32,000 nucleotides of DNA from Polynucleobacter corsicus (GCF_018688255.1 NZ_CP061314.1:2000659-2032658); one strand, 5' to 3'. Counted from the stretch's first letter, positions 4,938-24,144 are shown. Notes: generated by a model from the letters alone, not told the origin. Made by a program: numbers and translations.

Positions 4938-5015
4938 TAGGGCCGAGGATGCCTGATCCAAGCTCTTTTTAATTTCGTTGTACTCAAATCGAGCTTTTGG
5001 ATTTACCTTGGAATG

Positions 5016-6784: not shown

Positions 6785-6920
6785 CCCAAGAATTGAACTA
6801 TGTTCGAAATCTAGGTCGGTAGGTTTGGCAAGATGCCAAGTCAGCTCAGAGGTCTGTTGGAATCATACTAACTGATTACAGTTGGTGATGGAGTATATAA
6901 AGGGTAAACACTTGAAATAT

Positions 6921-7053: not shown

Positions 7054-7132
7054 GTGAACGGCAACTGTAAACTATGTGGTCGGTACCGGACGTAAAGCAT
7101 GTGTCCGGTACGGACCCGGTACGGACCGGTAT

Positions 7133-7390
7133 TTCTTGGTGGCCCGGGGCGGAATCGAACCACCGACACAAGGATTTTCAAATATCCTCCGATAGACCGC
7201 TTTCGCTTTAATTTCAAGGGCTTGAGTGACCAGTCTCGACTTGTCTAAAAATTGTGCGTCCTTGTGCCGGTCAAATTTGGCAATGAAATCAGAATCTTGC
7301 GAGGGACTATTTTTCCGTGTGTACAGATTGTGTCGCCATACCCTACCAGTCAATCACCATAGTGTCTATGAATGTCGTTTAAAACGACAT
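7133..7390. repeat. 258-bp repeat, copy B
   Basis: 256/258 identical to 2197-2454. Ends in the palindrome ATGTCGTTTAAAACGACAT (7372-7390). Confidence 0.9.
7137..7181 (-). pseudogene. tRNA-Phe 3'-half fragment; att remnant
   Basis: 45 nt identical to 11923-11967, diverging inside the anticodon loop. Confidence 0.85.
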
Positions 7391-7404
7391 TTCAACTGGC
7401 GTTC

Positions 7405-8451: not shown

Positions 8452-8554
8452 CCTCTTGATTTCAGTGTATACCCATTAATTCTGATGGTTATAGACTTTT
8501 AGTCTATTTAAGAGCTTAATTGAATCAATCTATCTTTTAGATGCGAGGAATATT

Positions 8555-9394: not shown

Positions 9395-9406
9395 GAGGGC
9401 ATGATA

Positions 9407-10351
9407 TTAAAAAGGAATGATTAATTCTTCCATCACATAGCGATAAAAGTAATTGGGGCCTAAAAACCCAGCAGACTTTCCATAACCAGCACGAGTCTTA
9501 AAGTAATAGTCATTTGATGCTACCGGACTGGTTGCCGCGAACTCATAAAGTTGTGTAGTGGTACTTGGATCTTGATTGACTGTTTGCCGCCCAACACCTG
9601 CTGTGCCACTGAGCATCCAACCCGCCATTCTTTTTCTTGCCCCAAACGCAATCATCGTTTCGTTATAGGTTGATGGGTTGAAATAGTTATTAGCAACATT
9701 GGTATTGGTATCCCTAAATTGGCGATAACGCAGTTGCGCCGTTAGCCCGTAGTCTGGCACTAGGTCGTAAATGAGCTTTGCCCTCACTATTGGCCTTGTA
9801 TTAGTGTCAGAGAAATACATATTGGCACCCATCAATATCGCAGTTAAACGCTCAAGAACTTGTTGCTCAATGCTCACTCCGCCAAGCGTGTAATAGATTC
9901 CATTGTTTAAGGAGTTTTGCGTCTCCACTCTATCTCGATTAACAATCACTTCAGCTTTTGTAGAGTCTGTTACGCGAAATCCATAATTACTATCAGTTGT
10001 AACTAATTGATGGCTATTCTCAGTGTTGTAACCAATATTGAGGTTATAGCCTAGAGCTGTTCGCGGATTAATTGCCTTTGTCATTAACGTATATTGCTCA
10101 CCTGTTGAGCTCCAGCCGCCTTGCGTAAAGTAATTGTGCTGATAGGTAATGCCTGTATATTTTTCACCATGCTCGTACAAAGGTAGGTAGCCTGCCTTGT
10201 ATTTGTATGTAGAAAACCCTTCGCTATCGGAGCTGAAATACACATTCGGCACTGAAATAGCCTGCTTTGTTTGCTCTGTCTCTTCTTCGGCATTCGCATG
10301 AGAACTAAACAGTATGGAGATCATTAGAAAAATCTGAACTATTCTTTTCAT
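9407..10351 (-). CDS. outer-membrane beta-barrel protein of unknown family, coupled to the GT2 synthase
   Basis: Signal peptide is MKRIVQIFLMISILFSSHANA. Y/G/N/T-rich alternating pattern with a C-terminal ...ELIIPF. ATG 10351-10349 overlaps the synthase TGA (10350-10348) as ATGA. Confidence 0.7.
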   Translation of the reverse strand: MKRIVQIFLMISILFSSHANAEEETEQTKQAISVPNVYFSSDSEGFSTYKYKAGYLPLYEHGEKYTGITYQHNYFTQGGWSSTGEQYTLMTKAINPRTALGYNLNIGYNTENSHQLVTTDSNYGFRVTDSTKAEVIVNRDRVETQNSLNNGIYYTLGGVSIEQQVLERLTAILMGANMYFSDTNTRPIVRAKLIYDLVPDYGLTAQLRYRQFRDTNTNVANNYFNPSTYNETMIAFGARKRMAGWMLSGTAGVGRQTVNQDPSTTTQLYEFAATSPVASNDYYFKTRAGYGKSAGFLGPNYFYRYVMEELIIPF

Positions 10352-11649
10352 TTCGTTCCCCAAGATTTACGAAGATTTAACAGCTCAGAAAAATATCCAT
10401 AAACACAAGCGGGCTGAAGCACTAAGCCATAGGCAAAAACATAGGATAAGAAGCCCAACATATTTGCCCGGACCGTTAAATGCTCAGCATTAAACATCGC
10501 CTTGCCCTTTAAATACATTTGCCAATTGAGTAAAAAAGCCATCGGCAATAGTGATAGCGTCATGGGGCCTGCTATCCAATAGATGCCAAAACAAGCCAGG
10601 ATTAGTCCAGGGATAAATCCAAAAGTAAAAGCAATATCCATTAGTGGAAACAATGTATTCCACCAAATGTATAGTGTTGAAAATCTTGGCTTAACAAGAA
10701 TCGTGGGGTTGTCCTTAAAAGCTTCTATCAATCCCCGTGACCAACGCCTTCTTTGGTGTATGAATTTACTTAAAGTATTGGGGCAATCCGTAAAAGCCAA
10801 AGCATCCTCAGCATGTCCCACTCTATAGCCTGCTGACAAAATTCTCCAAGTCAGTACGATATCTTCACCGACCATCTCTGGCCAACCGCCCAATTCCAAA
10901 ACTGTTTTACGGTCATACAAAGAGAATGCGCCTTGGGCAACTAAAGTACCTTGGAATAAAGACTGAATTCGCTTGATAGTCGCAATACCTAAAAAGTAAT
11001 CCCACTCCTGCGCCTTGGTAACCCAGTTTTCTCTTGAATTGCGAATGAGAATTTCTCCAGCAACTGCTTTGGTATTGATTGGATCGGAGAGGTATCGACC
11101 AACTAAGTGACGGACGCCATCTTTCAATATATAGCTATCAGCATCGATTGAAATAATAATATCCGTCGTACATTTTGCCAAACCATGATTGAGAGCGGAC
11201 GCTTTGCCACCGTTACGCCCTAAATCAATGAGCTCTAAATTGGGATGAGCCAACTGTAATGCTTTAACAGAATCGACAGTCTTATCACTAGAGCCATCAT
11301 TAATCACAATGATGCGAATATCTGCTGGGTAATCCTGTAGAAAAATTCCTGACAGAGATGAAGCTATTGATGCCCCCTCGTTATAGGCGGCGATTAATAT
11401 AGTGACCGGAGGGTAATGCTGATCAAGTATCACTTTTGGGCGGCGATCTAGTAGAAGAGCCATGGCCACAAAAGCATTCATAAAGCCTGGAACAATAGCT
11501 ACAAATGTAATGACGAAATAAGCGAGGAATGTTCCTATTTCATTGCTCAGGTCTGAATACCAGGGCTGGGAATGCCAAAAAGAAAATCCCATCCAACTTA
11601 AGGAAAATAGTAGTGAAACGATAAATTTTCCTTTTACTGAAAAATACAA
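10348..11649 (-). CDS. family-2 processive beta-glycosyltransferase (PgaC/IcaA/NodC-like synthase)
   Basis: N- and C-terminal TM helices flank a GT-A domain. Motifs are ILIAAYNE, INDGSSD, SIDADS, GED and QRRRWSRG (Q-x-x-R-W). Confidence 0.85.
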   Translation of the reverse strand: MYFSVKGKFIVSLLFSLSWMGFSFWHSQPWYSDLSNEIGTFLAYFVITFVAIVPGFMNAFVAMALLLDRRPKVILDQHYPPVTILIAAYNEGASIASSLSGIFLQDYPADIRIIVINDGSSDKTVDSVKALQLAHPNLELIDLGRNGGKASALNHGLAKCTTDIIISIDADSYILKDGVRHLVGRYLSDPINTKAVAGEILIRNSRENWVTKAQEWDYFLGIATIKRIQSLFQGTLVAQGAFSLYDRKTVLELGGWPEMVGEDIVLTWRILSAGYRVGHAEDALAFTDCPNTLSKFIHQRRRWSRGLIEAFKDNPTILVKPRFSTLYIWWNTLFPLMDIAFTFGFIPGLILACFGIYWIAGPMTLSLLPMAFLLNWQMYLKGKAMFNAEHLTVRANMLGFLSYVFAYGLVLQPACVYGYFSELLNLRKSWGTK

Positions 11650-11701
11650 AGGATTCCACCAAAATTTATAATTGTTCAGAATACTCCCTGATGGGATTGT
11701 T

Positions 11702-11785
11702 TTGTCGTTTTAAACGACATTGACTGACACAGGGATGTTTAATTGACATGTCCTTTAAAAGGACATTTGATGACCCTGATATCCC
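11702..11785. repeat. dual-palindrome intergenic repeat, copy 4 (divergent)
   Basis: Palindrome 1 is GTCGTTTTAAACGAC (11704-11718). Palindrome 2 is ATGTCCTTTAAAAGGACAT (11748-11766). The tail is degenerate. Confidence 0.75.
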
Positions 11786-11885
11786 AGTCTAGAACCAGAG
11801 TGGCTGAATCCTGATTGACGGATTAAATCTATGGGATTTGACTAAACATGCTAGGCGCAAGGTCTAAGCACCATTAAGCACTAGA

Positions 11886-11913
11886 AATAAAAATAGCCCA
11901 ACAAGTGGGCTAT
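11886..11913 (-). terminator. Rho-independent terminator of tRNA-Phe
   Basis: On the minus strand: ATAGCCCA-cttgt-TGGGCTAT followed by TTTTTATTT, 9 nt after the tRNA 3' end. Confidence 0.75.
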
Positions 11914-11922
11914 AGAGATTCT

Positions 11923-11998
11923 TGGTGGCCCGGGGCGGAATCGAACCACCGACACAAGGATTTTCAATCCTCTGCTCTACCGACTGAGCTACCAGGCC
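11923..11998 (-). tRNA. tRNA-Phe (anticodon GAA), 76 nt with encoded CCA
   Basis: Reverse complement is GGCCTGGTAGCTCAGTCGGTAGAGCAGAGGATTGAAAATCCTTGTGTCGGTGGTTCGATTCCGCCCCGGGCCACCA. It folds as a cloverleaf: 7-bp acceptor stem, anticodon loop TTGAAAA, T-loop TTCGATT. Confidence 0.95.
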
Positions 11999-12002
11999 AA
12001 GA
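11960..12002. repeat. attL-type 43-bp direct repeat (tRNA-Phe anticodon loop to 5' end plus 4 nt)
   Basis: ATTTTCAATCCTCTGCTCTACCGACTGAGCTACCAGGCCAAGA is identical to 22025-22067. Confidence 0.85.
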
Positions 12003-12007
12003 CTGCT

Positions 12008-12013
12008 ATTATA
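12008..12013 (-). promoter_or_regulatory. candidate -10 box (TATAAT) driving tRNA-Phe, supplied by the island side
   Basis: On the minus strand TATAAT sits 9 nt upstream of the tRNA 5' end. A second TATAAT (22074-22079) sits 10 nt beyond the displaced 5'-half copy. The -35 is weak. Confidence 0.4.
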
Positions 12014-12265
12014 CGCAAACTGTTCTTAAAGCTGTTAAAAAATCCTCTACTGTGCGTTTCCACCTTGTAGTTATCAGCCTTTCTGCTGTATGCACGCTAT
12101 ACAAAATAGTTTTCACTGTGTCCATTTTGTCCCACTGTAAAAACCCTGCGTTTACTTAAACCACACCCTACAAGCACACAAAACCTACCAAAATATTGCT
12201 GTTAGCAGTTGTAGCACACCAAAAATCAGGTTGTCCTTGTACTGTGCTGACACTACGCTATAAAA

Positions 12266-13519
12266 ATGCGTCGTCCGTTTACACAGTTAGTTAAAGCACA
12301 AGGTACAAGTAGCAACAGCCTCACCACCTTACAAAATGACAACATTGTGTACTTGCGCGACGGAGAGGTAGTGCTGTACAAGCGTGAAAACAGTAGCGTA
12401 TGGCAGATGCGCTACAGGCTATATGACAAGGAGTGGCGCAGGGTAAGCACAAAGCATCACAACATAGACTACGCAATACGAACAGCAGGCGACATATATG
12501 ACGAGGCGAGATTTAGAGAGCGTTTAGGATTGTCGTTCACTCGTCGCAAGTTTGGTGCTATCGCTAAAGTTTGTTTACAAGATATAAGAACAGAAATAGA
12601 CGCTGGCATAAAGCCAATGACTAACAGCGACTACACAAGAGCAATAAACAAATATCTTATTCCGTTTTTTGAAAACTACTATATAGAAAATATAGACGCA
12701 GAAGTAATGCGTCAATATGAAGTGTGGCGCAATGAACTAATGAAACGCATTCCGTTAGCGAGTACATTAGCAACTCACGCAAGCGCATACAGACGAGTGA
12801 TAGACACAGCAATACAGCGTGGATGGTTGAGCGAAAACTTACCTACAGCACAAATGAGTAGGCGTGGAGAGAAAGGTAAGGCGCGACCAGGCTTCACGCG
12901 AGCAGAGATTGATTACTTGTTAGATTTTTTAGATAGCTACAGTAAAGGTGGGCACAGTGCTCGCGCAAAAGAAATGCGCTTGTTGAGTAGAGACTACATA
13001 GAGTTATTGATTGGTACAGGTATGCGCTGTGGCAAAGAGAGCCTACACATTAAATGGAAGCACATAGAGTGGTACATAGACAGCAACACAGCAAAACGGT
13101 ACCTGCGTATATGGGTAAGCGGAAAAACAGGCGCACGCCACCTAATTGCTAAGCACAAAGTACAAGAAGCATTAGAGAGATTAATAAGTAGAGAGCCAAT
13201 ATTTAATGGCAAAACATTGGACATGGTGCTAGCAGAGAAGCATGATGTTTATTTGTTTAAGCTATCTGACGGCGATCGTCCAAAGAGCTTTCACACAACA
13301 TTTAATTGGCTAATGAAAGCAAGTGGCTTACTTAAAGATGCGGCTACAGGACAGAACAGAACACAATACAGCCTGCGCCATACCTATGCCACCCTAGCAC
13401 TTACTGATGGCGGCATGGATGTACATACACTAGCAAAGCAAATGGGAACAAGTGTTGGGATGCTTGAAAAACATTACAGCAAGCTAACGGCGACAATGGC
13501 GGCGGATAGATTGGCTTAA
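12266..13519 (+). CDS. tyrosine-type site-specific integrase
   Basis: 417 aa. C-terminal catalytic signatures are GMRCGKESLHIKW (R), YSLRHTYAT (H-x-x-R) and MGTSVGMLEKHYSK (Y). Lies adjacent to attL. Confidence 0.9.
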   Translation: MRRPFTQLVKAQGTSSNSLTTLQNDNIVYLRDGEVVLYKRENSSVWQMRYRLYDKEWRRVSTKHHNIDYAIRTAGDIYDEARFRERLGLSFTRRKFGAIAKVCLQDIRTEIDAGIKPMTNSDYTRAINKYLIPFFENYYIENIDAEVMRQYEVWRNELMKRIPLASTLATHASAYRRVIDTAIQRGWLSENLPTAQMSRRGEKGKARPGFTRAEIDYLLDFLDSYSKGGHSARAKEMRLLSRDYIELLIGTGMRCGKESLHIKWKHIEWYIDSNTAKRYLRIWVSGKTGARHLIAKHKVQEALERLISREPIFNGKTLDMVLAEKHDVYLFKLSDGDRPKSFHTTFNWLMKASGLLKDAATGQNRTQYSLRHTYATLALTDGGMDVHTLAKQMGTSVGMLEKHYSKLTATMAADRLA

Positions 13520-13539
13520 GCGTAAATTTTTTTTACGCT
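13519..13539. repeat. 21-bp palindrome family, copy a (AGCGTAAA-ttttt-TTTACGCT)
   Basis: 8-bp inverted arms and a 5-nt T-rich spacer. Overlaps the last base of the integrase stop codon and lies 10 nt from the REase stop. Confidence 0.85.
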
Positions 13540-13549
13540 TGCCACTTAG

Positions 13550-14602
13550 CTAAAGTCTTATTAACAAGTTAAATTTGAAAAACTTATCATCAAAAACCTT
13601 TCCGAAGTCATGCCGTGTTGTGCTTGCCGTATCAAAGAAGCTATGCTCAAAAAGATAGTCATTAAGGTTGGTGTTGGATTGGGTATCGTCTAAATAAAAA
13701 CTAGCTAATTTGCCATCAGCCTTAACTACGATCATTCCACCGTTCGCCGATAAGGATCCATTCCAAAGATCTCGTGGCACCATACCAAATGCTGTAGCTG
13801 TCAAAAATTTAGAAATGATCTTTTGGTAGTCACTTGTATTGGTGAAATTGAAAGGGTTTTTATTCGCCACAATCGCCAATAAATCTTTTATATATTTTTC
13901 CCTATTGCTGGCTCCATAGTATTCAACAAGTAAGCGACTAATAAGAATTTCTAAATTTTGATCCACCCTTTGTAAGTTTTGCTTGTATGTTTGATTAACA
14001 GAGCCGAGATGCTTCAGTGGCAATGACTTAACAAGTCTGCCTAAATTTTTAGGTGTCGGGTCGGCTATGCTAATTTTAGAGGGTGCTTCATATAAAAAAT
14101 TAGTGGATTGTGAGGCGTTTAATAAAGAAGTTGCGCCACCTAAATTACTTTTGATGCTAAAGCCTTTTATGGCTTTGGTTTGACTGGCTGAGTCATAGAT
14201 CTCTAGCTTAATATCACTTTTTTCAGAGCGAGTTGCTTTTATTTGAGGATTAAAAAAGTCATTCCACAGACTATCAAGCTGATTAAAGCTAAAGGTTGTT
14301 GATGTGGAAGTTTGGATCTGTTGGAAAAGGCTTGTAGCAATACCTTTTACATCACCAATTGGAATGCTGTTGTTTTGCCCATCATAGTTAGCAATAACAG
14401 AATCATTTTGAACAGCTAAGCTAACAAATTTATTGGGAGCATCTGTGGGTATAAGGATTGAATGAACTTTATATTGACTGGTATTTTGGTCGGCTAAAGA
14501 TTTGTCGGACAAAATAAAATTGGCATTACCAATCAGAGCAAGAAGCGCATACGCCTCACTCCATTCACCACGATTCATTGTTAAGTTTTGTATCCTGCTC
14601 AT
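13550..14602 (-). CDS. type II restriction endonuclease, HpaII-like family (predicted CCGG)
   Basis: 350 aa, immediately downstream of the C5-MTase. The N-terminal NRGEWSEAYALLALIG matches the KGEWSE-Y-x-L-K-LL signature I recall for HpaII-family enzymes. The lack of CCGG in the island is consistent with this. Confidence 0.65.
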   Translation of the reverse strand: MSRIQNLTMNRGEWSEAYALLALIGNANFILSDKSLADQNTSQYKVHSILIPTDAPNKFVSLAVQNDSVIANYDGQNNSIPIGDVKGIATSLFQQIQTSTSTTFSFNQLDSLWNDFFNPQIKATRSEKSDIKLEIYDSASQTKAIKGFSIKSNLGGATSLLNASQSTNFLYEAPSKISIADPTPKNLGRLVKSLPLKHLGSVNQTYKQNLQRVDQNLEILISRLLVEYYGASNREKYIKDLLAIVANKNPFNFTNTSDYQKIISKFLTATAFGMVPRDLWNGSLSANGGMIVVKADGKLASFYLDDTQSNTNLNDYLFEHSFFDTASTTRHDFGKVFDDKFFKFNLLIRL

Positions 14603-14625
14603 AAAAGGCAGGATACATCAAACTA

Positions 14626-15558
14626 TTAATTTTTAGAACTTTTAATATATTTGATAATTGATTTAGCAACTTCTTGTATCGCATCAACGGCAACACTATT
14701 ACCAAGCTGTTTCATTGCCTGACCTTTGGCAACAGGAAATTGAAAATCATCAGGGAATCCCATCATCTTCTTCCCTTGTTCAACGCCCAACCTCTTTACT
14801 TGTCCATCCACTAAGTAAGCATCCCAATTTCTTCTATCATCTATGCCTGAGCCTTTTCCTCCAACCCGAAGAGTAAAGCCAATCTCCCGAGAACATTCAC
14901 CACCCCAAACATCAGACATATTAAATTTCAATTCTTTTTTGTCAGGAAATTGAAATGGCTCTTTGTAATCATCTTCTTTGCGGAAACCAATAATAAAAAT
15001 TCTCGGTCTATGCTGTGGTAGCCCGTAGTCAGAAGCTTTCACGACCTTGTAGTGAATGTCATACTCAAGTTCTACTTGTAGTATTTGCTTAATTACATCA
15101 AATGTTCTGCCAGTGTCGTGATTTTGTAGGTGCCTTACATTTTCCAAAAAAAATGCTTTGGGTCTCTTAGTTTTTAATATGTCTCTAATGTGAAAAAACA
15201 TATTACCCCGTGACTCATGTTCTTCATTAAATCCCTTTTTATGTCCAGCCTGTGAGAAAGGCTGACAAGGAAATCCCGCACAAAGAATGTCATGATCAGG
15301 AATATCATCAGGATCAATATTTGTAATGTCGTCATTAAATAAGGGACTATCAAACATATCTTCGCTAAACAAGTTAGGCGAGATGGACTTAAAGTTTTCT
15401 TTATAAGTCTTGCGGGCGAAAGGATCTTTCTCAGACGCAAATACGCATTCACTCCCTTCATTATGAAATGCGATGTGGAAGCCGCCAATTCCTGCGAACA
15501 GATCAATAAACTTAAGTTTATTTTTGTTTGATTTGGATGGTTTGCGTGTTTTATTCAT
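14626..15558 (-). CDS. DNA (cytosine-5)-methyltransferase
   Basis: Canonical C5-MTase motifs: I DLFAGIGGF, IV GFPCQPFS, VI ENV, VIII QHRPRIFIIG, X GNSVAV. The variable region is short. Confidence 0.92.
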   Translation of the reverse strand: MNKTRKPSKSNKNKLKFIDLFAGIGGFHIAFHNEGSECVFASEKDPFARKTYKENFKSISPNLFSEDMFDSPLFNDDITNIDPDDIPDHDILCAGFPCQPFSQAGHKKGFNEEHESRGNMFFHIRDILKTKRPKAFFLENVRHLQNHDTGRTFDVIKQILQVELEYDIHYKVVKASDYGLPQHRPRIFIIGFRKEDDYKEPFQFPDKKELKFNMSDVWGGECSREIGFTLRVGGKGSGIDDRRNWDAYLVDGQVKRLGVEQGKKMMGFPDDFQFPVAKGQAMKQLGNSVAVDAIQEVAKSIIKYIKSSKN

Positions 15559-15589
15559 AGTGATTTATTTTTTAATTATATTGTCTTTT

Positions 15590-15610
15590 AGCGTAAATAT
15601 TTTTTACGCT
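15590..15610. repeat. 21-bp palindrome family, copy b (AGCGTAAA-tattt-TTTACGCT)
   Basis: Lies between the MTase start (15558) and the stop of the 279-aa gene (15617). Confidence 0.85.
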
Positions 15611-15616
15611 TATTTT

Positions 15617-16456
15617 TTACTTACTCTTCTTTGTTCCTGTTGGTCGCCCAGCTTTACGCTTATAAGGGGTTGTTATTGCTTCAGTAAAGTTCTTATCGGA
15701 TGGGAATCTTCCTCTTGCCGCATTCTCAGCAACTAATGACGCACAGCGAATCAATCTGCTTGCGGCAATGCTAAGCAATTCTTTTCTATCTGCTAATTCA
15801 GCCTCTAATATGTCGCCCGCCTCTGACTCAATAAATGACTGTGCTGGGATAAGTCTTAGGTGATTGCCAATTTTCCAAAGTGGCACATCCTTCTTATATA
15901 AGCGTAATGCGGTTAATCCATTCTGTAATGTATCAATGCGCAATTTACTATTTGACAGTTGGTATAAGGGCGCTACTTGTTTTGGCAGATCTGCTGAAAA
16001 TCCATAACCCTCTAATTGCTTGCGTAGTTGTTTAAGTGCTTGCGGAAGAGTTAGATTAAGAGGTAATTCAGCCACTACTGAATTAACTCCCGCCCATTCA
16101 TTTATTAATTGCTTTTTAGTTGAATCTAAAACGCCTACAACATTGACTTTTGGTAATGGCGCACTTATCCCATATAACCGCATGCCTATCTCACCCCACC
16201 AGTCTGCTTCCCGCATTTTGTAGATTGGACCAAAGTCACTTACAACTTGCGCTACATCCTTAAAGTCTTTTGGTAATGGGTAGGGTGATTTTTGCTTAGC
16301 TAATTTACGCATTACAGCTTCATAGCTGGGACTTGCTTTTAGGTAGTCACAAACCAAGTCATATCGCAAATCAGGTTTAACTGAAATTCCAGTCTGTTCA
16401 TAGCTTGCCTCCAATGACATAAGGCGTGGGAGAGGTTTTCGTCCTAAATTAGCCAT
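15617..16456 (-). CDS. hypothetical protein with a basic AT-hook-like C-terminal tail
   Basis: 279-aa ORF with no overlapping alternative. The tail YKRKAGRPTGTKKSK contains a GRP core. I recognise no family. Confidence 0.6.
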   Translation of the reverse strand: MANLGRKPLPRLMSLEASYEQTGISVKPDLRYDLVCDYLKASPSYEAVMRKLAKQKSPYPLPKDFKDVAQVVSDFGPIYKMREADWWGEIGMRLYGISAPLPKVNVVGVLDSTKKQLINEWAGVNSVVAELPLNLTLPQALKQLRKQLEGYGFSADLPKQVAPLYQLSNSKLRIDTLQNGLTALRLYKKDVPLWKIGNHLRLIPAQSFIESEAGDILEAELADRKELLSIAASRLIRCASLVAENAARGRFPSDKNFTEAITTPYKRKAGRPTGTKKSK

Positions 16457-16596
16457 TTAATATTAACAAGTATAGATAAATTATCTCATCATAATAATTC
16501 ATGTTAATAAATCTTACAATAGATACATAGATTGAACAAAGCAACACAGTTCATCCCTCTTTAACAATTAGCAAATTTTTGTAGTAGCAGTAAGCA

Positions 16597-16617
16597 AGCG
16601 TCAATTTTTTTGACGCT
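16597..16617. repeat. 21-bp palindrome family, copy c (AGCGTCAA-ttttt-TTGACGCT)
   Basis: Sits in the divergent intergenic region, 72 nt upstream of ATG 16689. Flanked by direct TAGCAGTA octamers. Confidence 0.85.
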
Positions 16618-16688
16618 TAGCAGTAGTCAGTGTGTAAGCAATTTAGCAAGCACGCTTTTAATCAACGCCATTTCTTAAGGAGATAAAC

Positions 16689-17501
16689 ATGGCTAAATCA
16701 GTAAGCAGTAAAACAGCATTGTCCGCACAATCAATCATTGAGAAAGCGGATGCTTTAGTAAAACAGCGTGAAAACTTTGAACAAAATGAATACGCACGCA
16801 GTAATCAGCGTTTGTATGAAATTTTGGCGCAAGTGTTAGAAATGTATGAACAAGCAAGTATTAGCAAAACAACTTTGTCTGAAACTGTTAAGCAAATGAA
16901 GGCTAAGTTAGAAGCAAGTAAAGTGCGTGTTCAGACTAATACGCTGGCATTAACACTATTTGTGCGCTATGTATTCCGCACTGATAGACAACGCAGTATG
17001 AACTACAGCAGAACTTTACAGGCGGCTTTACAGCAAGGCATTAATGCTAAGCAGTTAGCGCAGTTTGTAGAGGACTGTGGCGGTGTAGAGCAATGTAAGA
17101 AGCGTTTTACTAAATCAGAGAAGGTTGTGGCAAAGGAAACTGTTATTGCTAACAATCTAGCTTTAGTAGATGACACATTAGCTAGCTTAGCTGAAAACCC
17201 ATTAGCAACATTTAAGGTTCCTAATAGTGTTGTAGCTACTACCTATGACAAAGAGTTTGTATTTGTAATTGGTAAGGCTGACAAGCAAGGCAACATTAAG
17301 GCGCTTGGTGCTGTGCCAGCATATTCAGCGGGCATGGCTAAGTGGGCTAAACAGCAATTAGCCTTGTTTATTAGTAATCAGCAGGCAATTACTAAGAAGC
17401 ATGCTAATGCTAAGCGCAAGGACACAGCACTTGCTACCGCAAAGTCTGCCGCAAAAAGCAAAACGCCCACTGAAACAGTAGGCGAATTGTTAGCGGCTTA
17501 A
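16689..17501 (+). CDS. hypothetical protein, first gene of a two-gene operon with the AAA+ ATPase
   Basis: 270 aa, with AAGGAG 6 nt upstream of the ATG. Appears helical with a basic Ala/Lys-rich tail. I recognise no family. Confidence 0.6.
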   Translation: MAKSVSSKTALSAQSIIEKADALVKQRENFEQNEYARSNQRLYEILAQVLEMYEQASISKTTLSETVKQMKAKLEASKVRVQTNTLALTLFVRYVFRTDRQRSMNYSRTLQAALQQGINAKQLAQFVEDCGGVEQCKKRFTKSEKVVAKETVIANNLALVDDTLASLAENPLATFKVPNSVVATTYDKEFVFVIGKADKQGNIKALGAVPAYSAGMAKWAKQQLALFISNQQAITKKHANAKRKDTALATAKSAAKSKTPTETVGELLAA

Positions 17502-17570
17502 CTTACAAAAGTGTTTTGAAACTTGGGCTGGGTGTTGGCGCACTCAGCCCACAAACAAAGGATAACTGAT

Positions 17571-18227
17571 ATGAATAGTAATTTCAAGTATCGCCCTCAG
17601 ACTATAGATGAGTTTGTTTTTGCTACACCTAAATTGGAGACACAAATCAAACGCTATACGCAGGGTAAGTCATTATTACCATTGGTGCTATATGGAGCAT
17701 ATGGGACTGGCAAGAGTTTATTGGCAGACTTAATTCCAAAGGCATTAGATGGCGCAGATGTAAAAGTTAATTACATCAACGCAGAAGAATTAAACAATGC
17801 TAATGATGTGCGTAAAAAGTTTTTTCGCTCTGTTCAATTTGATAAGTTCTTTACAACTAATGGACAAAAACACAACTACACCGTAGTAGAGGAGGTTAAT
17901 TTTGATCCTAAAGCAAAGGGCGCATTACGAGTGTGCTTGGATGATATGGCTGAGCGAGAACTGTTTATCTTCACAACAAATGAAGTTGATAAGATAGATA
18001 AAGGCTTGCTTAGCAGAGCTGAAGTAGTTGAAGTATTGCCTGCGCCACCTGATCGTTTCTTCCCTCGCGCACAGCACATATTACGCAGTGAAGGAGTTGA
18101 TTTAGAAGACAGTGTCTTGCGTGATGTGTTGGAAACAGTGTATGAGAACGATTATGATAATCGTGCCTACTATCGTGCTTTAGATGAAATTATTGAAGCA
18201 TGGAATGACAACACACTACAGCAATAA
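17571..18227 (+). CDS. clamp-loader-like (RFC small subunit / T4 gp44-like) AAA+ ATPase lacking the collar domain
   Basis: FKYRPQTIDEFVF (RFC box II, compare gp44 KYRPSTIDECIL). Walker A is GAYGTGKS, Walker B-like is VVEEV, sensor-1 is FTTN, and the SRC-like arginine finger is SRA. ATG 17571 has AAGGA 8 nt upstream. Confidence 0.7.
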   Translation: MNSNFKYRPQTIDEFVFATPKLETQIKRYTQGKSLLPLVLYGAYGTGKSLLADLIPKALDGADVKVNYINAEELNNANDVRKKFFRSVQFDKFFTTNGQKHNYTVVEEVNFDPKAKGALRVCLDDMAERELFIFTTNEVDKIDKGLLSRAEVVEVLPAPPDRFFPRAQHILRSEGVDLEDSVLRDVLETVYENDYDNRAYYRALDEIIEAWNDNTLQQ

Positions 18228-18230
18228 TCA

Positions 18231-18251
18231 AGCGTAGATTTTTTTGACGCT
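18231..18251. repeat. 21-bp palindrome family, copy d (AGCGTAGA-ttttt-TTGACGCT, imperfect)
   Basis: Starts 4 nt after the ATPase stop. Has one mismatch and one G-T pair in the arms. Confidence 0.75.
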
Positions 18252-18259
18252 TAACTTTT

Positions 18260-18293
18260 AAGCCCGCTTATTAACTTAGGCGGGCTTTTTTTA
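18260..18293 (+). terminator. Rho-independent terminator between convergent genes
   Basis: AAGCCCGC-12 nt-GCGGGCTT followed by a T7 run. Confidence 0.8.
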
Positions 18294-18857
18294 TACCAAC
18301 TCAACAGCCTTACGCATCATATCGTCCGACGCAAAAATATAGATGGAAGTTGTCTGTATGTCCTTATGTCCCATTAAGTGCTGTAGTACCTTAATACCCA
18401 CACCATTGCTTGCTAAGTTCGTTGCGAAAGTCCTGCGTCCGCTATGTGATGAGGCTTTAATACCTGCTTTGCGATAGAGCCAAAAGAACCATTGTGTCAG
18501 CGTGTTAGCAGAAAACCCATTTGACTTTTCTGTAGCAAACAAAGGCAGTGATGTGTCTTTAGGTGAGTAATGCTTTAAGTAAGTAGCTAATTCAGTTCGT
18601 AGCTTTTCATTTACAAACACCACCCTTCCTTTGTTGCCCTTCGTTTGACTGGCAGATAAGCGTATCTCGCTTTTAATCGTTCCATCTTCATTTCGCACAT
18701 CGCATATTCTTAGTGCGGCAATCTCCCCAACTCGCATCCCACTCCAACAGCTTGTCAGTAGCATCGCCCTGTTTCTAATGCTGTATTTCTGTTTTGTGCT
18801 GATGTAGCGCAATACCATATCTATTTCTGATTGATTTAATGTTTTTGCTTGTGCCAT
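18291..18857 (-). CDS. small tyrosine recombinase, catalytic domain only (FimB/FimE-sized)
   Basis: 188 aa. Catalytic residues are present: GMRVGE (R), TKGNKGR (K), HSGRRTFAT (H-x-x-R), LMGHKDIQTTSIYIF (H..Y). There is no N-terminal core-binding domain. Confidence 0.85.
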   Translation of the reverse strand: MAQAKTLNQSEIDMVLRYISTKQKYSIRNRAMLLTSCWSGMRVGEIAALRICDVRNEDGTIKSEIRLSASQTKGNKGRVVFVNEKLRTELATYLKHYSPKDTSLPLFATEKSNGFSANTLTQWFFWLYRKAGIKASSHSGRRTFATNLASNGVGIKVLQHLMGHKDIQTTSIYIFASDDMMRKAVELV

Positions 18858-19161
18858 TTTCTTGCTCCATAAAAGAATTTATTGTTATTAGTATGTTTTC
18901 TTATTAGCAAAATTCCTACCGAAAAATGGCAGAAAAAGATCTTCCATAAATCAATGACTTACGCAGTCAAAGTAGCTCGTTATAAGAATTTAGTAATTTT
19001 CTTATTACGCCGTAGTCAATAAGCCACACCTATAGCAAGCCCTATACGCTTTTATTTAAGCGTTCTGTAGCTTGGGTATTAACTTAGTCGGAATTTTGCT
19101 TTGTAGCGTTGATTTGATGTATTGCTGTGCTACGCTTATAAAACCAACGCTAAAGGACTAT

Positions 19162-19650
19162 ATGAGTGATATGTATTTGACAGAAGCTGACTTTAATTTT
19201 CAGAGTGATAACGCTGAATTAAGAGAGAAGGCTGAAAATATTGTCAATTTCACAAGCTCAGTCCTTTTAGATTTAAGCGACGAAGATATTGACGCTATCA
19301 AGCAGTTAGAGGACATATTTCTATCTTTACAAGATTCCTTATTTTCAAATTCAGACACAATATTAAAAAGTAAGCGTTTGGGTTTTACGGAAGAAGATAA
19401 AAAGAAGTTAGATGAACTACAAATAATTCTTTTAGATAAGTGGAAAGAATTTGGATTCACCGAAAGCTTCTTTCATCGGCTATATCAAGTTCAGCGCCAA
19501 TTGAATGGTTCTGAATTAAACGCCAATCAGAGCGAACGCTTAGATTTGTTATTTCAAATACTTAATGAACAGAAAACCCTTGTAATTGCTTTCAATGTAA
19601 TGCGTAGTAAGGATCGCCCTGTGATATTGGATGTAGAAGAATATATGTAG
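19162..19650 (+). CDS. hypothetical acidic helical protein
   Basis: ATG 19162 has AAAGGA 6 nt upstream and is preferred over the upstream TTG 19072. No recognisable motifs. Confidence 0.5.
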   Translation: MSDMYLTEADFNFQSDNAELREKAENIVNFTSSVLLDLSDEDIDAIKQLEDIFLSLQDSLFSNSDTILKSKRLGFTEEDKKKLDELQIILLDKWKEFGFTESFFHRLYQVQRQLNGSELNANQSERLDLLFQILNEQKTLVIAFNVMRSKDRPVILDVEEYM

Positions 19651-19684
19651 ATATATGCCACGCAAAATTTCAGGTAGTAGCTGT

Positions 19685-19754
19685 AAATTTTTGTAGCGCA
19701 GTTTTTAAGGGGTGCGTAGATCTTAGCCACTGGTGATTTAATCTAACCACACCC
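19685..19754 (+). repeat. ~70-bp degenerate direct repeat, copy 1
   Basis: Shares the identical blocks TGTAGCGCAGTTTT and TTAATCTAA, in the same order and spacing, with 21613-21682. Lies just after the stop of 19162-19650. Confidence 0.6.
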
Positions 19755-19756
19755 TA

Positions 19757-20071
19757 TTAAGCCGAATCTATTACATCTCCGTTGCCATCTTCTAATTGAT
19801 AGACATGTTCTGTGGTGCCTTTGCGATCACTGAACCAATCATCATCTTCATAGTTTTCATATTCAATGTGATAAAGCATCTTATAAAGTTCAAACCAAAC
19901 ACTTGGGTCTGATGGTGCTTCGTCAGGATATTCCTCCAAATCTTCACCACTACTTTGTTCTACACGAGATTTAAGTGCTTCCCATTGATCTTGATCTTCT
20001 GTATCAAACTCTTCCCAAAATGATTGAATAACAGTTTGATATAGATCTTGTTTCGCTTTGAACTTAGGCAT
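19757..20071 (-). CDS. small, highly acidic protein (candidate DNA mimic / anti-restriction-like)
   Basis: 104 aa, with AGGAA 7 nt upstream of the ATG. I count about 29 D/E against 8 K/R, with aromatic residues interspersed (EYENYEDDDWF). Confidence 0.6.
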   Translation of the reverse strand: MPKFKAKQDLYQTVIQSFWEEFDTEDQDQWEALKSRVEQSSGEDLEEYPDEAPSDPSVWFELYKMLYHIEYENYEDDDWFSDRKGTTEHVYQLEDGNGDVIDSA

Positions 20072-20815
20072 TGTAAATTCCTATTAAGTTGAGAAATCAA
20101 ATAAGTTATTACATTGATAGGCGAAATACATTCGCCTGTGATTTCGCTTGCGCTCATCACCTTTTCTTCTCTAACTATACTAATAAAATATTAAGCTGAG
20201 TTAATGCTTAATGAACTTTTGATAGATTCAACCTACACTGAGCCTTAAGCAACAGGCTCAGTTATAGAAAAGTTCTTTTGATGAGTTCTTTACTACACCA
20301 CTATAAGCACAACCAATTGGTAAGGGCGGTTTCGCTATCTCCTTTTATGTGCGGCTTAAAACGCAACAATGACAAAAGCAATAAGTGGCTACCTTTATCT
20401 TGTTTGAAAGTTGCTGTGTAAGCAGGGCTTTCTCGTGACGCTCACAGCCCTATAGGCTGTCGTCTTTGTGCTGTTCATATACTTGATTCAATTAGTTAGC
20501 AAAGCTAATAGCGTCCTGTTAAGGATAGTGAATACAAGTCTCTGCTACCGCACAGAAATTCCATCCCTGTGACTCTTAGTCCAGTTTTAGGGCGACATAA
20601 CAACTGAGTGTCGCTACTCGTTATCGGTAGTAATTGTTGGCATATAGAGCTTTCTTCTGTTCTATTTGTCTAATTTATTTATACAAGTGATAAGAATAGA
20701 AATAAGAATCTGGCTTTTTATTTGGTAAGAATGGGGCTTTGTCCGTAAGCCTCTTGTCCAGTTAAAAACTCTGGCAATAAATTAAGTGTGTTCATTAACT
20801 TATAGGAGAAATAGC

Positions 20816-21256
20816 ATGAGCACATTAAGCACTTTGAAGTTGGTAGCAGTAAAAAAGCCAACCCATATACCAGCACTACAGCATCGCCGTAATAAGCTGT
20901 CTAACAAGTTATGGGAGCAAATCAATTTGGCGCAAAGTCAAATTGATGGCAAGCCGTTTGTAGTAATGAAGTTTCGCTCGGTTAAAGATATTGAAACGGG
21001 CTTACGCAAACAAGTAGAAATTCCCAAACGCATTAAAGCGTGGTGGTTTGTAGCAGACACAGGCAAGGTTTGCTTTTCTGTGAAATACGGCACACGCACT
21101 TTGGAGTTGGCGAAAGGCAAACCCAGTGTTCAAGTAGAAAGCGCAGAAGACTTAGTTAAAGCATTAACTGCCATTAAGTCAGCAGTGGAAGCTGGTGAGC
21201 TTGATAGTCAAATTGAAGAAGCAAGCAATGCGCTACGCAAAGGATTTGGCAAATGA
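20816..21256 (+). CDS. hypothetical protein, first of three translationally coupled genes
   Basis: ATG 20816 has TAGGAG 7 nt upstream. 146 aa. Its stop overlaps the next ATG as ATGA. Confidence 0.6.
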   Translation: MSTLSTLKLVAVKKPTHIPALQHRRNKLSNKLWEQINLAQSQIDGKPFVVMKFRSVKDIETGLRKQVEIPKRIKAWWFVADTGKVCFSVKYGTRTLELAKGKPSVQVESAEDLVKALTAIKSAVEAGELDSQIEEASNALRKGFGK

Positions 21257-21396
21257 AGCAATACAGGCTATGGGTACGCATCAATCAAACGCAAACAGCC
21301 AATACGATTGTGTTTGCGGACAATGCGTATACGGCAAAGCAATTAGGTGAGGCGCAGTATGGAGCTGGTAATGTGCTGAACTATACGGAAGTATGA
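21253..21396 (+). CDS. 47-aa small protein, below the ORF-track cutoff
   Basis: MKQYRLWVRINQTQTANTIVFADNAYTAKQLGEAQYGAGNVLNYTEV. ATGA overlaps both the upstream stop (21253-21256) and the downstream start (21393-21396). Confidence 0.5.
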   Translation: MKQYRLWVRINQTQTANTIVFADNAYTAKQLGEAQYGAGNVLNYTEV

Positions 21397-21614
21397 GTAG
21401 TGCTTTAGTGGGGGCTGGGTTAAATACTTGTATGCGCTTTTATGAATTTGCCCACACCCCCACAATCAAGCCTATCAAGCCAATGAACCCACAGCAATAT
21501 CGCCTGTATAGCCTAAAGCGCAACAAAGAAAATGCTAAGAAGGCTTATAAGGCTGAGAAGGATAGGCAGACTGTAGCTAAAGCACAGCAACAGATTTTCA
21601 AAGCTACTCACTAA
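21393..21614 (+). CDS. small basic hypothetical protein
   Basis: 73 aa with a Lys-rich C-terminal half (KRNKENAKKAYKAEKDRQ). Coupled to the 47-aa ORF. An internal start at 21432 is possible. Confidence 0.45.
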   Translation: MSSALVGAGLNTCMRFYEFAHTPTIKPIKPMNPQQYRLYSLKRNKENAKKAYKAEKDRQTVAKAQQQIFKATH

Positions 21615-21682
21615 AAATCTGTAGCGCAGTTTTCAAACGCCACGCAGAACCTAACCCCCACCAGTTTTAATCTAATACCCCC
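21613..21682 (+). repeat. ~70-bp degenerate direct repeat, copy 2
   Basis: See 19685-19754. It starts at the stop codon of 21393-21614. Confidence 0.6.
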
Positions 21683-21796
21683 CAATAACTATTAAATGTG
21701 AAATATGTGTTTTGACGCAAAAAGCGTGGGTTTTTGGCAGTTTTTATATGTATTTTTATTTTGGTATGAGTGGGGACGAGAGGCTATGCTGAAATG

Positions 21797-21817
21797 GGCG
21801 TAAATTATTTTTACGCT
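21797..21817. repeat. 21-bp palindrome family, copy e (GGCGTAAA-ttatt-TTTACGCT)
   Basis: The first base is G instead of A; otherwise the architecture is the same. It is the last copy before attR. Confidence 0.75.
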
Positions 21818-21935
21818 ACTCAACATACTTTCTGCCAGCACCATAAAACACTTTTTCAACACACCAAGCAATATTTTTTTCTGCGCTGTATCAATAGAAA
21901 ACGCTTGTAAATATTTTTACTGTGTAAGTTTTTTA

Positions 21936-21962
21936 GTGTCACTGTGTCACACAGCGTGTCAC
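21936..21962 (+). promoter_or_regulatory. three direct GTGTCAC heptamers, candidate arm-type recombinase/RDF binding sites near attR
   Basis: GTGTCAC occurs at 21936, 21944 and 21956, and overlaps the palindrome CTGTGTCACACAG. Related YACTGTG motifs lie at 21918 and 21940, and near attL at 12048, 12114, 12133 and 12240. Confidence 0.35.
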
Positions 21963-22024
21963 GCACCACTTTGCTATCGCCCTGCGAAGCATATAAACAT
22001 TGGGCTTTTGACTACCGTAGGAGT

Positions 22025-22067
22025 ATTTTCAATCCTCTGCTCTACCGACTGAGCTACCAGGCCAAGA
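22025..22067. repeat. attR-type 43-bp direct repeat (displaced 5' half of tRNA-Phe)
   Basis: Identical to 11960-12002. There is no tRNA 3' half next to it. Confidence 0.85.
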
Positions 22068-22179
22068 GCTGGAATTATAAATGAAACTGTGCTTCTGCCT
22101 GAAAAACATGCTGGCTGAGGTGGGTTGTGTCGATTTGATGGCTTTAGGATTCCCCGGGTCAGCCAAAATATATCGGCGC

Positions 22180-23067
22180 CTATTCTGCAATAAAGGTATT
22201 TTCCAGCCTGCCAATACCACCCATTTCTACCACCACCACATCGCCATTCACTAGATATTTTGGCGGCTTAAATCCGATTCCAACACCTACGGGAGTGCCG
22301 GTGGCGATGATATCGCCGGGATAAAGAGTAATGCCAGCGGAAACTGTTGCAATCATGTTGGGGATATCAAAGATCAGATCCTTCGTGTTGGAGTTCTGGC
22401 GTAACTCACCATTCACCCAGCATTTCACTGAAATATCCTCTGCATTAACTTGATCAGCAGTAACGACCCAAGGACCCATAGGGCAGAAAGTGTCAAAGCT
22501 CTTACCAAGAAACCATTGCTTATGACGCTGCTGCCAATCTCTAGCAGTCACATCATTGATGGCAGTGTAGCCCCATACATGCTTCATTGCGTCAGCCTCA
22601 CTAATACCTTTTCCACCCTTGCCAATAATGATGGTTAATTCAGCCTCGTAATCAATTGCTGTTGAAACTGCAGTGGGAATGATGACATTCGTATTAGGCC
22701 CCGTAACAGATTCAGGAGGCTTCGTAAAAAAGATGGCATGTGACGGAATATCTTCACCAGGCTTAGCGCTACCGTCAAATCCACTATTAGAAAATTCTTT
22801 TGCATGCTCATGATAATTTTTTCCTACACAAAAGATATTTCTTCTGGGTCTTGGGACTGGAGCTAACAAGCGAATGGCGGAAAATGCATGGGTTGCCACT
22901 GGCTTAGATAACTTTCCCGCTAAATCTGCGCGCAATATTGCCACTACGCCATCCTCGCTGACATCTACACCCAAATCCAACTCTTCAACAGATTTACCAT
23001 CCTCAGAGATTGAGCCAATCCGGGTTTTACTGGGGTCATTGAGCAGAGAAAATGTAGCGTATTTCAT
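22180..23067 (-). CDS. fumarylacetoacetate hydrolase (FAH) family protein
   Basis: 295 aa. FCVGKNYHEHAKEF and the downstream DYEAEL / GTPVGVG patterns are typical of FAH-family hydrolases/isomerases. Confidence 0.88.
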   Translation of the reverse strand: MKYATFSLLNDPSKTRIGSISEDGKSVEELDLGVDVSEDGVVAILRADLAGKLSKPVATHAFSAIRLLAPVPRPRRNIFCVGKNYHEHAKEFSNSGFDGSAKPGEDIPSHAIFFTKPPESVTGPNTNVIIPTAVSTAIDYEAELTIIIGKGGKGISEADAMKHVWGYTAINDVTARDWQQRHKQWFLGKSFDTFCPMGPWVVTADQVNAEDISVKCWVNGELRQNSNTKDLIFDIPNMIATVSAGITLYPGDIIATGTPVGVGIGFKPPKYLVNGDVVVVEMGGIGRLENTFIAE

Positions 23068-23169
23068 GGTTTTGTCTCCATTTGGGATTTTGTCTTAAAA
23101 ACCCTAGGTTTTAATGCTCAAGATTGTAGTAGAGTAAAAAGGAAATCAAATAATAACCAAGTAAATACT

Positions 23170-24144
23170 ATGAGACAAAAAATTGTTTCCGGCTTAATGC
23201 TTGCCAGCTTAGCCTTATTTTCTCCCCATGGCTTTTCTCAGGAAGCATGGCCAACCCGGCCAGTCACCATGGTCGTCCCATTCCCACCTGGGGGCGTAGC
23301 AGACGCTGTAGGCAGACCTGTTGCTGAAGCTATGTCACGCATTCTGGGGCAGTCGGTTATTGTTGAGAACAAGAGCGGTGCTGGTGGTGGTATTGGCATG
23401 GCATCTGTCGCTAAATCTAAGCCTGATGGCTATACAATTTTGATGGCGCTCTCTTCGATCTCCATTATTCCTGAAGCAGATAAGGTGGTTGGTCGAGAGC
23501 AGTCTTTTCAATTGAACCAGTTAAAACCAATTGCGCGCTTTACTGCCGACCCAACAGTATTGGTTGTCAGGACAGACAGCCCATGGAAGGACTATAAATC
23601 GTTTGTAGCGGCGATGCGCGCAAATCCAGGCAAATACAATTTTGGCTCCTCCGGAAATTATGGGACGATGCATGCACCAATGGAAATGCTGAAGTCATCC
23701 GAAAAGTTTTTTATGGTTCATGTTCCTTATACCGGGGCCGGCCCAGCCATTATTGGTTTATTAGGTGGCCAGGTAGATGCTTTGGCTACCGGGCCATCGT
23801 CCATCGTTCAACAAATTAAAGCCGGCAAGGTTCGAGCTCTCGCGCATTGGGGCGATGGACGACTAGCAAGCATGCCTGAAGTACCTAGCTTCAAGGAGAT
23901 GGGCGTAAAGATCGAGTTTGCTCAATGGGCGGGCTTATTTGTTCCTAGCGCAACTCCCGATGTAATCACGAGCAAGCTACGCGAAGTAGCCAAACTTGCA
24001 GCAAATGATGATCGTGTCCGATCGGTAATTAATGGTGCTGGTAGTCCAATTCAATATCTAGATGCACCAGAATTTAAGGTGTATTGGGATAAGGAATCAG
24101 CTCAAATGATTGATGTTGTAAAAAAAATTGGTAAGGTTGAATAA
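23170..24144 (+). CDS. Bug-family (TctC-like) tripartite tricarboxylate transporter substrate-binding protein
   Basis: Signal peptide followed by WPTRPVTMVVPFPPGGVADAVGRPVAE...ENKSGAGGGIG, the hallmark Bug N-terminus. 324 aa. Confidence 0.92.
   Translation: MRQKIVSGLMLASLALFSPHGFSQEAWPTRPVTMVVPFPPGGVADAVGRPVAEAMSRILGQSVIVENKSGAGGGIGMASVAKSKPDGYTILMALSSISIIPEADKVVGREQSFQLNQLKPIARFTADPTVLVVRTDSPWKDYKSFVAAMRANPGKYNFGSSGNYGTMHAPMEMLKSSEKFFMVHVPYTGAGPAIIGLLGGQVDALATGPSSIVQQIKAGKVRALAHWGDGRLASMPEVPSFKEMGVKIEFAQWAGLFVPSATPDVITSKLREVAKLAANDDRVRSVINGAGSPIQYLDAPEFKVYWDKESAQMIDVVKKIGKVE

Follow-up and report, generated by a model that had tools for sequence, protein, structure and literature searches.

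An integrated island on the 5′ side of tRNA-Phe(GAA)

The window analysed here is a 32,000-nt stretch of DNA from Polynucleobacter corsicus (NZ_CP061314.1:2000659-2032658), and all positions are counted from its first letter. The 10,022-bp segment at 12003-22024 is very probably a genomic island, mobilised by its own integrase, that has been inserted into the 5′ half of the tRNA-Phe(GAA) gene and has provided this gene with a 5′ half and a promoter-like sequence from the island. This reading is directly supported by an exact repeat of the tRNA 5′ half at both ends of the segment, by its insertion relative to empty sites in related genomes, by an intact integrase, by the placement of a whole family of islands on the 5′ side of the tRNA and by the conservation of a promoter-like hexamer.

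The intact tRNA-Phe(GAA) gene (11923-11998, minus strand; Rfam tRNA, 68 bits) was the sole tRNA of the window detected by ARAGORN, and its sequence was identical to the tRNA-Phe of island-free relatives. A terminator-like hairpin followed by a T-run is present downstream of the gene (11893-11913, minus strand), and the same hairpin was found after tRNA-Phe in Polynucleobacter bastaniensis (locus L007). An exact 43-mer occurred as a direct repeat in two copies in the window, at 11960-12002 and 22025-22067, and in the chance control not a single match to it was obtained in any dinucleotide-preserving shuffle of the window. The repeat finder returned this pair as a 46-nt direct repeat (11957-12002 and 22022-22067) with one mismatch, located at 11959/22024. 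Read in the tRNA sense, the exact 43-bp block corresponds to tRNA-Phe positions 1-39 plus four upstream nucleotides (TCTT); these positions comprise the acceptor arm, the D arm, the anticodon loop with the 5′ strand of its stem, and one further base.

The copy at 11960-12002, running from tRNA-Phe position 39 to position 1 and on into the four upstream nucleotides, makes up the identity block of the left attachment site (attL). The copy at 22025-22067 makes up that of the right attachment site (attR) and holds the displaced 5′ half of the host tRNA-Phe with its four upstream nucleotides; the tRNA fragment within it (22025-22063, minus strand) is co-oriented with the gene and lies upstream of it in the tRNA sense. 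The tRNA-Phe of the window is a hybrid gene, with host-derived sequence in its 3′ part (11923-11959) and a 5′ part that falls within the attL identity block.

Two exact 37-nt 3′ halves of tRNA-Phe were also observed in the window, at 2201-2237 and 7137-7173, with identity to the gene extending from the anticodon loop TTGAAAA to the 3′ end plus AAGAA. It is clear from the alignment that 11960-11967 is the only segment common to the 5′-side and the 3′-side identity blocks, and this anticodon-loop octamer (TTGAAAAT in the tRNA sense, minus strand) probably represents the region of strand exchange. A first-pass annotation of the window, made from the sequence alone, had described both the 43-bp repeats, with their coverage of the tRNA 5′ half, and an octamer shared by the blocks on the two sides; the former was borne out by the exact two-copy match and the latter by the overlap in the alignment.

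Empty sites define the insertion

Species-representative genomes were scanned with the response regulator of the right flank, and Polynucleobacter loci were obtained, the best being that of P. bastaniensis with 98% protein identity. Seven relatives (L007, L009, L010, L014, L015, L016 and L019) contained one intact tRNA-Phe and no copy of its 5′ half. At five other loci (L008, L012, L013, L017 and L018) just a 5′ half was found beside the conserved flank, and these sites were therefore taken to be occupied by islands exceeding the fetched flank.

The P. bastaniensis locus shared 91% identity with the window across 7 kb of the right flank. Its tRNA-Phe is directly preceded by ...ACACTTTCATTTATAATTCCCAACTCTT, which corresponds to window 22068-22105 and not to the sequence from 12003 onwards. 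The same stretch of the window (22068-22105, minus strand) also matched the region upstream of the intact tRNA-Phe in L009, L010, L014 and L015, and represents the native tRNA-Phe upstream region, now parted from its gene. As the upstream sequence of L007 is that found from 22068 onwards, the bacterial attachment site (attB) is defined and 12003-22024 is an insertion. Comparison with an island-free relative was the check proposed in the first-pass annotation, and its view of an island lying upstream of tRNA-Phe and rebuilding the 5′ half of the gene held. The precise absence of the island from seven related genomes is a sporadic occurrence of the kind used as a criterion by Islander (PMC4383910).

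A family of islands placed alike

The integrase of the island is a full-length tyrosine integrase of 417 aa with SAM-like N-terminal domains (12266-13519, plus strand; Pfam PF00589, PF14659 and PF13102; phrog_1). Its start lies 263 nt from the 5′ end of tRNA-Phe and it is transcribed away from the tRNA; homologues of 415-417 aa covered 100% of its length. Homologues of the integrase number more than 3,000, mostly from freshwater metagenomes, and the named ones belong to Polynucleobacter. More than 20 related islands were placed in the same manner, with a minus-strand tRNA-Phe and an integrase that diverges from the 5′ end of the tRNA. This layout was found in named Polynucleobacter genomes (L001 and L002) as well as in metagenome contigs (L004, L005, L087, L090, L092-L100, L102 and L109), and the island family is common in freshwater Polynucleobacter and related Betaproteobacteria.

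Wherever the contig was long enough, a copy of the 5′ half was present 5.5-19 kb off, and the full architecture including this far-end copy was observed in L001, L002, L087, L090, L095, L098, L099, L100 and L102. The constant backbone of the family consists of the large integrase, a small recombinase on the opposite strand and a DUF6641 protein; the cargo is variable. In L091, L095 and L003, junctions were found that run from the right end of an island into a 5′ half and then into another island or an upstream region, and they point to tandem arrays in which the regenerated site was reused. The attP-like junction of L091 (attP, the attachment site of the element), where the two ends are 141/144 identical, fits a tandem array equally well as a circle.

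The same configuration was found at a second tRNA. Integrases about 52-56% identical to that of the window adjoin the 5′ end of tRNA-Leu(CAA) in L089, L120-L122, L127 and L128. In L128, an exact 39-nt repeat, equal to tRNA-Leu positions 1-39, was found around an island of 11.5 kb in which both the small recombinase and DUF6641 are encoded. The two upstream regions of L128 are about 80% similar in sequence, and each contains GCCATAAT as a -10-like element; the island-side copy is TG-extended. The 3′ side of tRNA-Leu(CAA) was also seen to be occupied by classical P4-type (Arm-DNA-bind_3) integrase islands (L128 1119-2774 and L089 2839-4425), and double occupancy of a single tRNA gene is therefore recurrent.

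A sister island was found in the opposite orientation. In Polynucleobacter sp. MWH-HuK1 (L016), the 5′ side of tRNA-Phe is empty and the sister island is located at 10778-20678; its backbone shows 70-80% nucleotide identity to window 15641-20730. The integrase of this island, 47% identical to that of the window, starts 127 nt after the 3′ end of tRNA-Phe and runs in the same direction as the tRNA, which is the classical orientation. A sister lineage with the same backbone uses the same tRNA in this orientation, and its crossover site is apparently shared. In another locus (L119), a 45%-identical integrase adjoins the 3′ end of tRNA-Met. In a small neighbour-joining tree, nine 5′-type integrases separated from these two 3′-type integrases, and on the basis of this split the orientation seems to belong to the integrase/attP module, which may be exchangeable on one island backbone. 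The far ends of the 3′-type island of L016 and of the tRNA-Leu island of L089 lie outside the loci examined. A match of 15 nt to the native upstream region, noted at L016 20513-20527, falls within the DUF6641 coding sequence and was dismissed as chance.

Upstream regions and the promoter-like hexamer

The 70 nt upstream of each tRNA-Phe 5′ end or 5′-half copy were extracted and compared. In the window, a -10-like TATAAT is present on the island side, 9 nt from the 5′ end of tRNA-Phe (12008-12013, minus strand), and another TATAAT on the native side (22074-22079, minus strand), with 10 nt between it and the 5′ end of the displaced half; both sides also carry ACAGTTT (12017-12023 and 22084-22090). 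Host-side junctions and empty sites had CAGTTTCATTTATAATTCC...TCTT in common. In island-side junctions, ACAGTTTGCGTATAAT preceded a leader that was variable and 9-14 nt long, and some of these junctions had an extra AAAT before the tRNA.

All of the roughly 12 distinct island-side variants (more than 20 copies) retained TAnAAT at 9-14 nt before tRNA-Phe; the hexamer was TATAAT in most of them and TACAAT in L087 and L090. The island-side leader and the more distal sequence diverge while the hexamer stays, and the multiple alignment agreed with this. Apart from the hexamer, the island and native upstream regions share ACAGTTT and a T-run near -40, and in L090 the two regions are nearly identical over about 25 nt. 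We read the island attP as a diverged copy of the tRNA-Phe upstream region, its likeness to the native one being probably a matter of homology and not of convergent mimicry, and its -10 element as probably kept by selection. In view of this conservation, the island hexamer is a putative working promoter. The first-pass annotation had already placed both TATAAT elements and the shared ACAGTTT, and direct reading confirmed their positions; it had also proposed that the island mimics the tRNA promoter. Every island-side copy examined retained TAnAAT, which is in favour of this proposal, though we would replace mimicry by homology.

In Polynucleobacter sp. MWH-CaK5 (L002; 9735-9773 and 15850-15888), it was the island side that carried the genus-consensus CAGTTTCATTTATAATTCC, the host side carrying TATAGTACAATTC. 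The comparison suggests that islands may have acquired the upstream regions they carry from other host species.

When the right end of the island, which faces the native promoter, was searched for a terminator, none was found. The predicted RNA running from the native promoter through the displaced half into the island showed no unusual structure upon folding (z = 0.61). It is possible, although we consider it unlikely, that the exchange of promoters is functional and not merely tolerated. A whole integrase clade of freshwater Betaproteobacteria that moved to the 5′ halves of tRNA-Phe(GAA) and tRNA-Leu(CAA) would then have let the island run the transcription of a probably single-copy host tRNA, and a strong, growth-rate-controlled native promoter would fire through the displaced half into the right end of the island. 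If true, such a reciprocal promoter swap could couple the maintenance, expression or excision of the island to the growth state of the host, and losing the promoter region of the island could be lethal.

Proposed mechanism and alternative explanations

We propose that the island was integrated by site-specific exchange between attP and attB, carried out by the tyrosine recombinase within the anticodon loop of tRNA-Phe(GAA). The crossover site would be that of the classical anticodon-loop tRNA integrators, with the target orientation reversed, and attP would bring tRNA positions 1-39 and a diverged upstream region with a TATAAT -10 element, not a 3′ half and a terminator. After integration, attL would consist of the host 3′ half joined to the island 5′ half and the island promoter; at attR, the host 5′ half, with the native promoter still attached, would have been moved to the far end of the island. 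The host tRNA-Phe would then rely on the island for both its 5′ half and its promoter, and the native promoter would face into the island.

The crossover is placed in the anticodon loop because the block boundary is constant after position 39 in both the Phe and the Leu islands, and because the loop octamer is the sole overlap with the classical 3′ blocks of the window. The identity boundary was the same in all Phe islands, and in the Leu islands it lies after CTCAAAA. Judged from these boundaries, the exact position of strand exchange would fall within the loop. The element may still be competent for excision.

Several observations weigh against this reading and have to be set beside it. In the attP of the window, GAGTA/TCCTC flank TTTTCAA, giving an imperfect second stem arm (dyad 4/5), and when conserved attP dyad symmetry or a second arm was looked for across the other island lineages, it was not found. 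Core sites were not recognisable, and the crossover in the anticodon loop therefore rests on the block boundaries. Neither an excised circle nor a matching empty site of this population was recovered; a viral-contig scan for the junction between the right end of the island and the 5′ half gave no match, and nor did an exact-protein look-up of the right-flank FAH-family gene. The integrase tree, built by neighbour joining and rooted at the midpoint, is a small one of 11 sequences. At neither junction did a bipartite sigma-70 scan detect a promoter, and no -35 element is recognisable on the island or the native side; the scan says little, because the native promoter in island-free strains is also of this form.

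Three other explanations of the locus were weighed. The 43-bp copy at 22025 could be the remnant of a decayed second tRNA-Phe, left from an old tandem duplication, with the rest being ordinary variable chromosome, and the diverged similarity does continue past the exact repeat into the upstream region, as it would between two old copies. The presence of such a decayed gene in island-free relatives was what the first-pass annotation had named as the case against itself. The empty sites hold a single tRNA-Phe, with neither a remnant nor a copy of the 5′ half in any of the seven relatives, and therefore a decayed second tRNA gene is excluded there; moreover, the copy ends precisely at the anticodon loop in each island-bearing locus, the architecture recurs at tRNA-Leu, and an intact integrase stands beside the junction in every case. 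We find this explanation scarcely credible. It is also very improbable that the insertion arose through RecA-dependent homologous recombination of a circular element with a tRNA-Phe fragment, or that the segment is an immobile remnant, the integrase being irrelevant in either case. Homologous recombination over 43 bp of identity is conceivable in principle, and a circular form was absent from the viral-contig scan, but the boundary falls at the same anticodon-loop nucleotide in Phe and Leu islands of different hosts, and the integrase clade correlates with the orientation. The integrase is of full length, close relatives differ in whether they carry such an island, and tandem arrays exist.

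An explanation of a different kind accepts the integration as described and takes the TATAAT as inherited homology, with the tRNA transcribed from elsewhere in the island or poorly expressed. The missing -35 element and the promoter scan without a match are in keeping with it, and given the clear homology to the native upstream region, the conservation of the hexamer could reflect recent descent. However, the hexamer was kept despite diverged surroundings and different leader lengths (L107/L109, L087, L090 and L103), and in island-free strains the native promoter likewise appears to consist of a -10 element only. Read-through from the island is unlikely, as the integrase, which is the island gene nearest to the tRNA, is transcribed away from it. 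A single-copy, essential tRNA-Phe is to be expected in such small genomes, which also counts against a poorly expressed gene, and we regard this explanation as improbable. Integration into the tRNA-Phe 5′ half, with a 5′ half and promoter-like sequence supplied by the island, is the reading that we retain.

Gene content of the inserted island

The guanine-cytosine content inside the island (0.36-0.40) was lower than that of the flanks (0.43-0.47). Next to the tRNA-side junction, the left attP arm (12049-12246, plus strand) contains three co-oriented ACTGTG motifs (12049, 12115 and 12241); the right attP arm (21919-22024, plus strand) contains two more, together with three copies of GTGTCAC, and the right-end sequence (ACTCCTACGGTAGTCAAAAGCCCAATG...) is conserved in related islands. 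The five co-oriented copies of ACTGTG in the two arms compare with 0.27 expected from the motif density of the window, and in an alignment of related islands (alignment A3) CACTGTG in the left arm was partly conserved. These motifs are candidate arm-type integrase sites.

Behind the integrase, the cargo comprises an HpaII-family restriction endonuclease (13550-14602, minus strand; PF09561, E = 2e-62) and a C5 cytosine DNA methyltransferase (14626-15558, minus strand; PF00145, E = 5e-77; TIGR00675). They are followed by two conserved backbone genes without an assigned function (15617-17501), encoding proteins of 279 aa (minus strand) and 270 aa (plus strand), with 76% nucleotide identity to the L016 island; for both proteins, zero family matches were obtained in the Pfam, NCBIfam and phrog searches. 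The backbone further includes a clamp-loader-like AAA+ ATPase (17523-18227, plus strand; PF00004; phrog_168, E = 7.5e-25) and a small Xer-like tyrosine recombinase of 188 aa (18291-18857, minus strand; PF00589, E = 9e-29; NCBIfam XerA/XerD-like), which consists of the catalytic domain only. A small recombinase of this type (188-195 aa) is kept alongside the large integrase in L001-L006, L087, L090 and L128. The DUF6641 protein (20786-21256, plus strand; PF20346; phrog_31551) is a backbone marker of the island family and was also found in related islands. In L087 (12319-16389), the block that spans DUF6641 and the small recombinase is flipped with respect to the integrase when compared with the window, which hints at an invertible or rearranged module.

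The island also contains a Polynucleobacter-1 RNA motif (RF01718; 20481-20619, minus strand) scoring 101 bits against a gathering score of 37. It lies about 170 nt from the DUF6641 gene and is divergent to it. This motif was reportedly described by Weinberg in 2010 as an orphan motif and a candidate cis-regulatory RNA. Copies were detected in related islands (L016 19928-20065, L096 4762-4900 and L099 4768-4906), and the motif is thus present in both 5′-type islands and the 3′-type island of L016; in L001, L002, L003, L087, L090, L095, L098, L100 and L128 it did not reach the gathering score.

The 3′ side of tRNA-Phe and the right flank

Besides the two 37-nt fragments, a shorter 3′ fragment of tRNA-Phe is present at 4914-4937. 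Two of the 3′ fragments are contained in a 98%-identical 267-nt repeat (2188-2454 and 7124-7390). In the segments between the 3′ fragments no recognisable integrase was found; they encode porin, HD-GYP, GGDEF and GT2 proteins instead. The region further contains two palindrome families, TGTCGTTTTAAACGACA in six copies (825-845, 2435-2455, 4761-4781, 6920-6940, 7371-7391 and 11701-11721) and GTCCTTTTAAAGGAC in four copies (861-909, 4797-4845, 7009-7057 and 11738-11786). These palindromes form inverted repeats of about 43 nt that bound 2436-6939 and 7347-11745, and the segments bounded by them could be cassettes or mobile units of a different kind. At 990-2113, directly beside the leftmost 3′ fragment, lies a transposase of the IS3 family (rve, rve_3 and HTH_21).

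On the other side of the island, just beyond the native tRNA-Phe upstream region, a 2.9-kb stretch (22106-24971) is absent from the P. bastaniensis locus, which has 92 nt instead. Its genes encode a hydrolase of the FAH family, a binding protein of the TctC/Bug type and a class II aldolase-like protein; neither an integrase nor a repeat was seen in this stretch.

Comparison with known systems

Nearly all phages and islands that target tRNA genes replace the 3′ part of the gene, and the usual explanation is that the host promoter stays in charge. The island family described here indicates that the opposite, 5′ solution works repeatedly in nature, at two tRNAs and with a homologue of the tRNA's own upstream region. 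The pair of 5′-type and 3′-type islands is tractable for testing what sets the target orientation of a tyrosine integrase, and the pairing with the L016 island would make a natural system in which to ask why 3′ integration dominates. Integrase/att pairs with unusual geometry are also gained. For island-finding software restricted to 3′ fragments, the family is a caution. The Islander algorithm explicitly allows a 5′ fragment upstream of the tDNA (PMC4383910), and with reference to its criteria the window has a tyrosine integrase inside the interval, an intact tDNA and a co-oriented 5′ fragment at the other end.

Integration on the 5′ side of a tRNA gene is a rare configuration on record since 2002: PMC6563490, citing Zhao & Williams 2002 and archaeal cases, describes 5′-distal integration as 'considerably less frequent' than 3′ integration. 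The first-pass annotation had implied more novelty for 5′-side integration than this record allows, and no principle is overturned. The element with reversed target orientation of Zhao & Williams 2002 (J Bacteriol 184:859) reportedly resembles the window island in having a tyrosine integrase, an identity block over the 5′ part of the tRNA and a position upstream of the gene, and in that the element must supply upstream sequence. Unlike that element, the present islands form a clade of more than 20 copies at two tRNAs, Phe(GAA) and Leu(CAA), with a sister in the classical orientation at the same tRNA. What is added here is a large, abundant clade at two tRNAs, comparative evidence for what appears to be a conserved element-borne -10 element, and the classical-orientation sister. 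The host, tRNA and integrase lineage of the Zhao and Williams element are reportedly also different from those of the window island.

The classical anticodon-loop class (Williams 2002, NAR 30:866; cited in PMC12884075 and PMC6563490) shares with the window island a block boundary in the anticodon loop and the regeneration of the tRNA, and the 3′-side fragments at 2201-2237 and 7137-7173 fit its pattern. In contrast to that class, the block of the window island reaches the 5′ end and not the 3′ end of the gene, and a promoter, not a terminator, has to be supplied. Archaeal 5′-distal integrators (Krupovic & Bamford 2008; Krupovic 2010; Gaudin 2014; Cossu 2017; CalSub-E1, PMC6563490) have in common with the island the rare use of the 5′ side; they differ in hosts, integrase types and the kind of tRNA promoter.

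Outside tRNA genes, the 5′ end of the essential gene prfC is replaced by SXT/R391 integrative conjugative elements, which bring a new promoter. In contrast to the window island, these elements have a protein-coding target, are large and conjugative, and carry an unrelated integrase. The tRNA-dependent lysogeny of mycobacteriophages (PMC10865867) is likewise an unusual answer to integrating in an essential tRNA gene. Those mycobacteriophages do not rebuild the tRNA and bring a complete tRNA gene of the same isotype with them, whereas in the window island the tRNA is rebuilt and no complete tRNA gene is carried.

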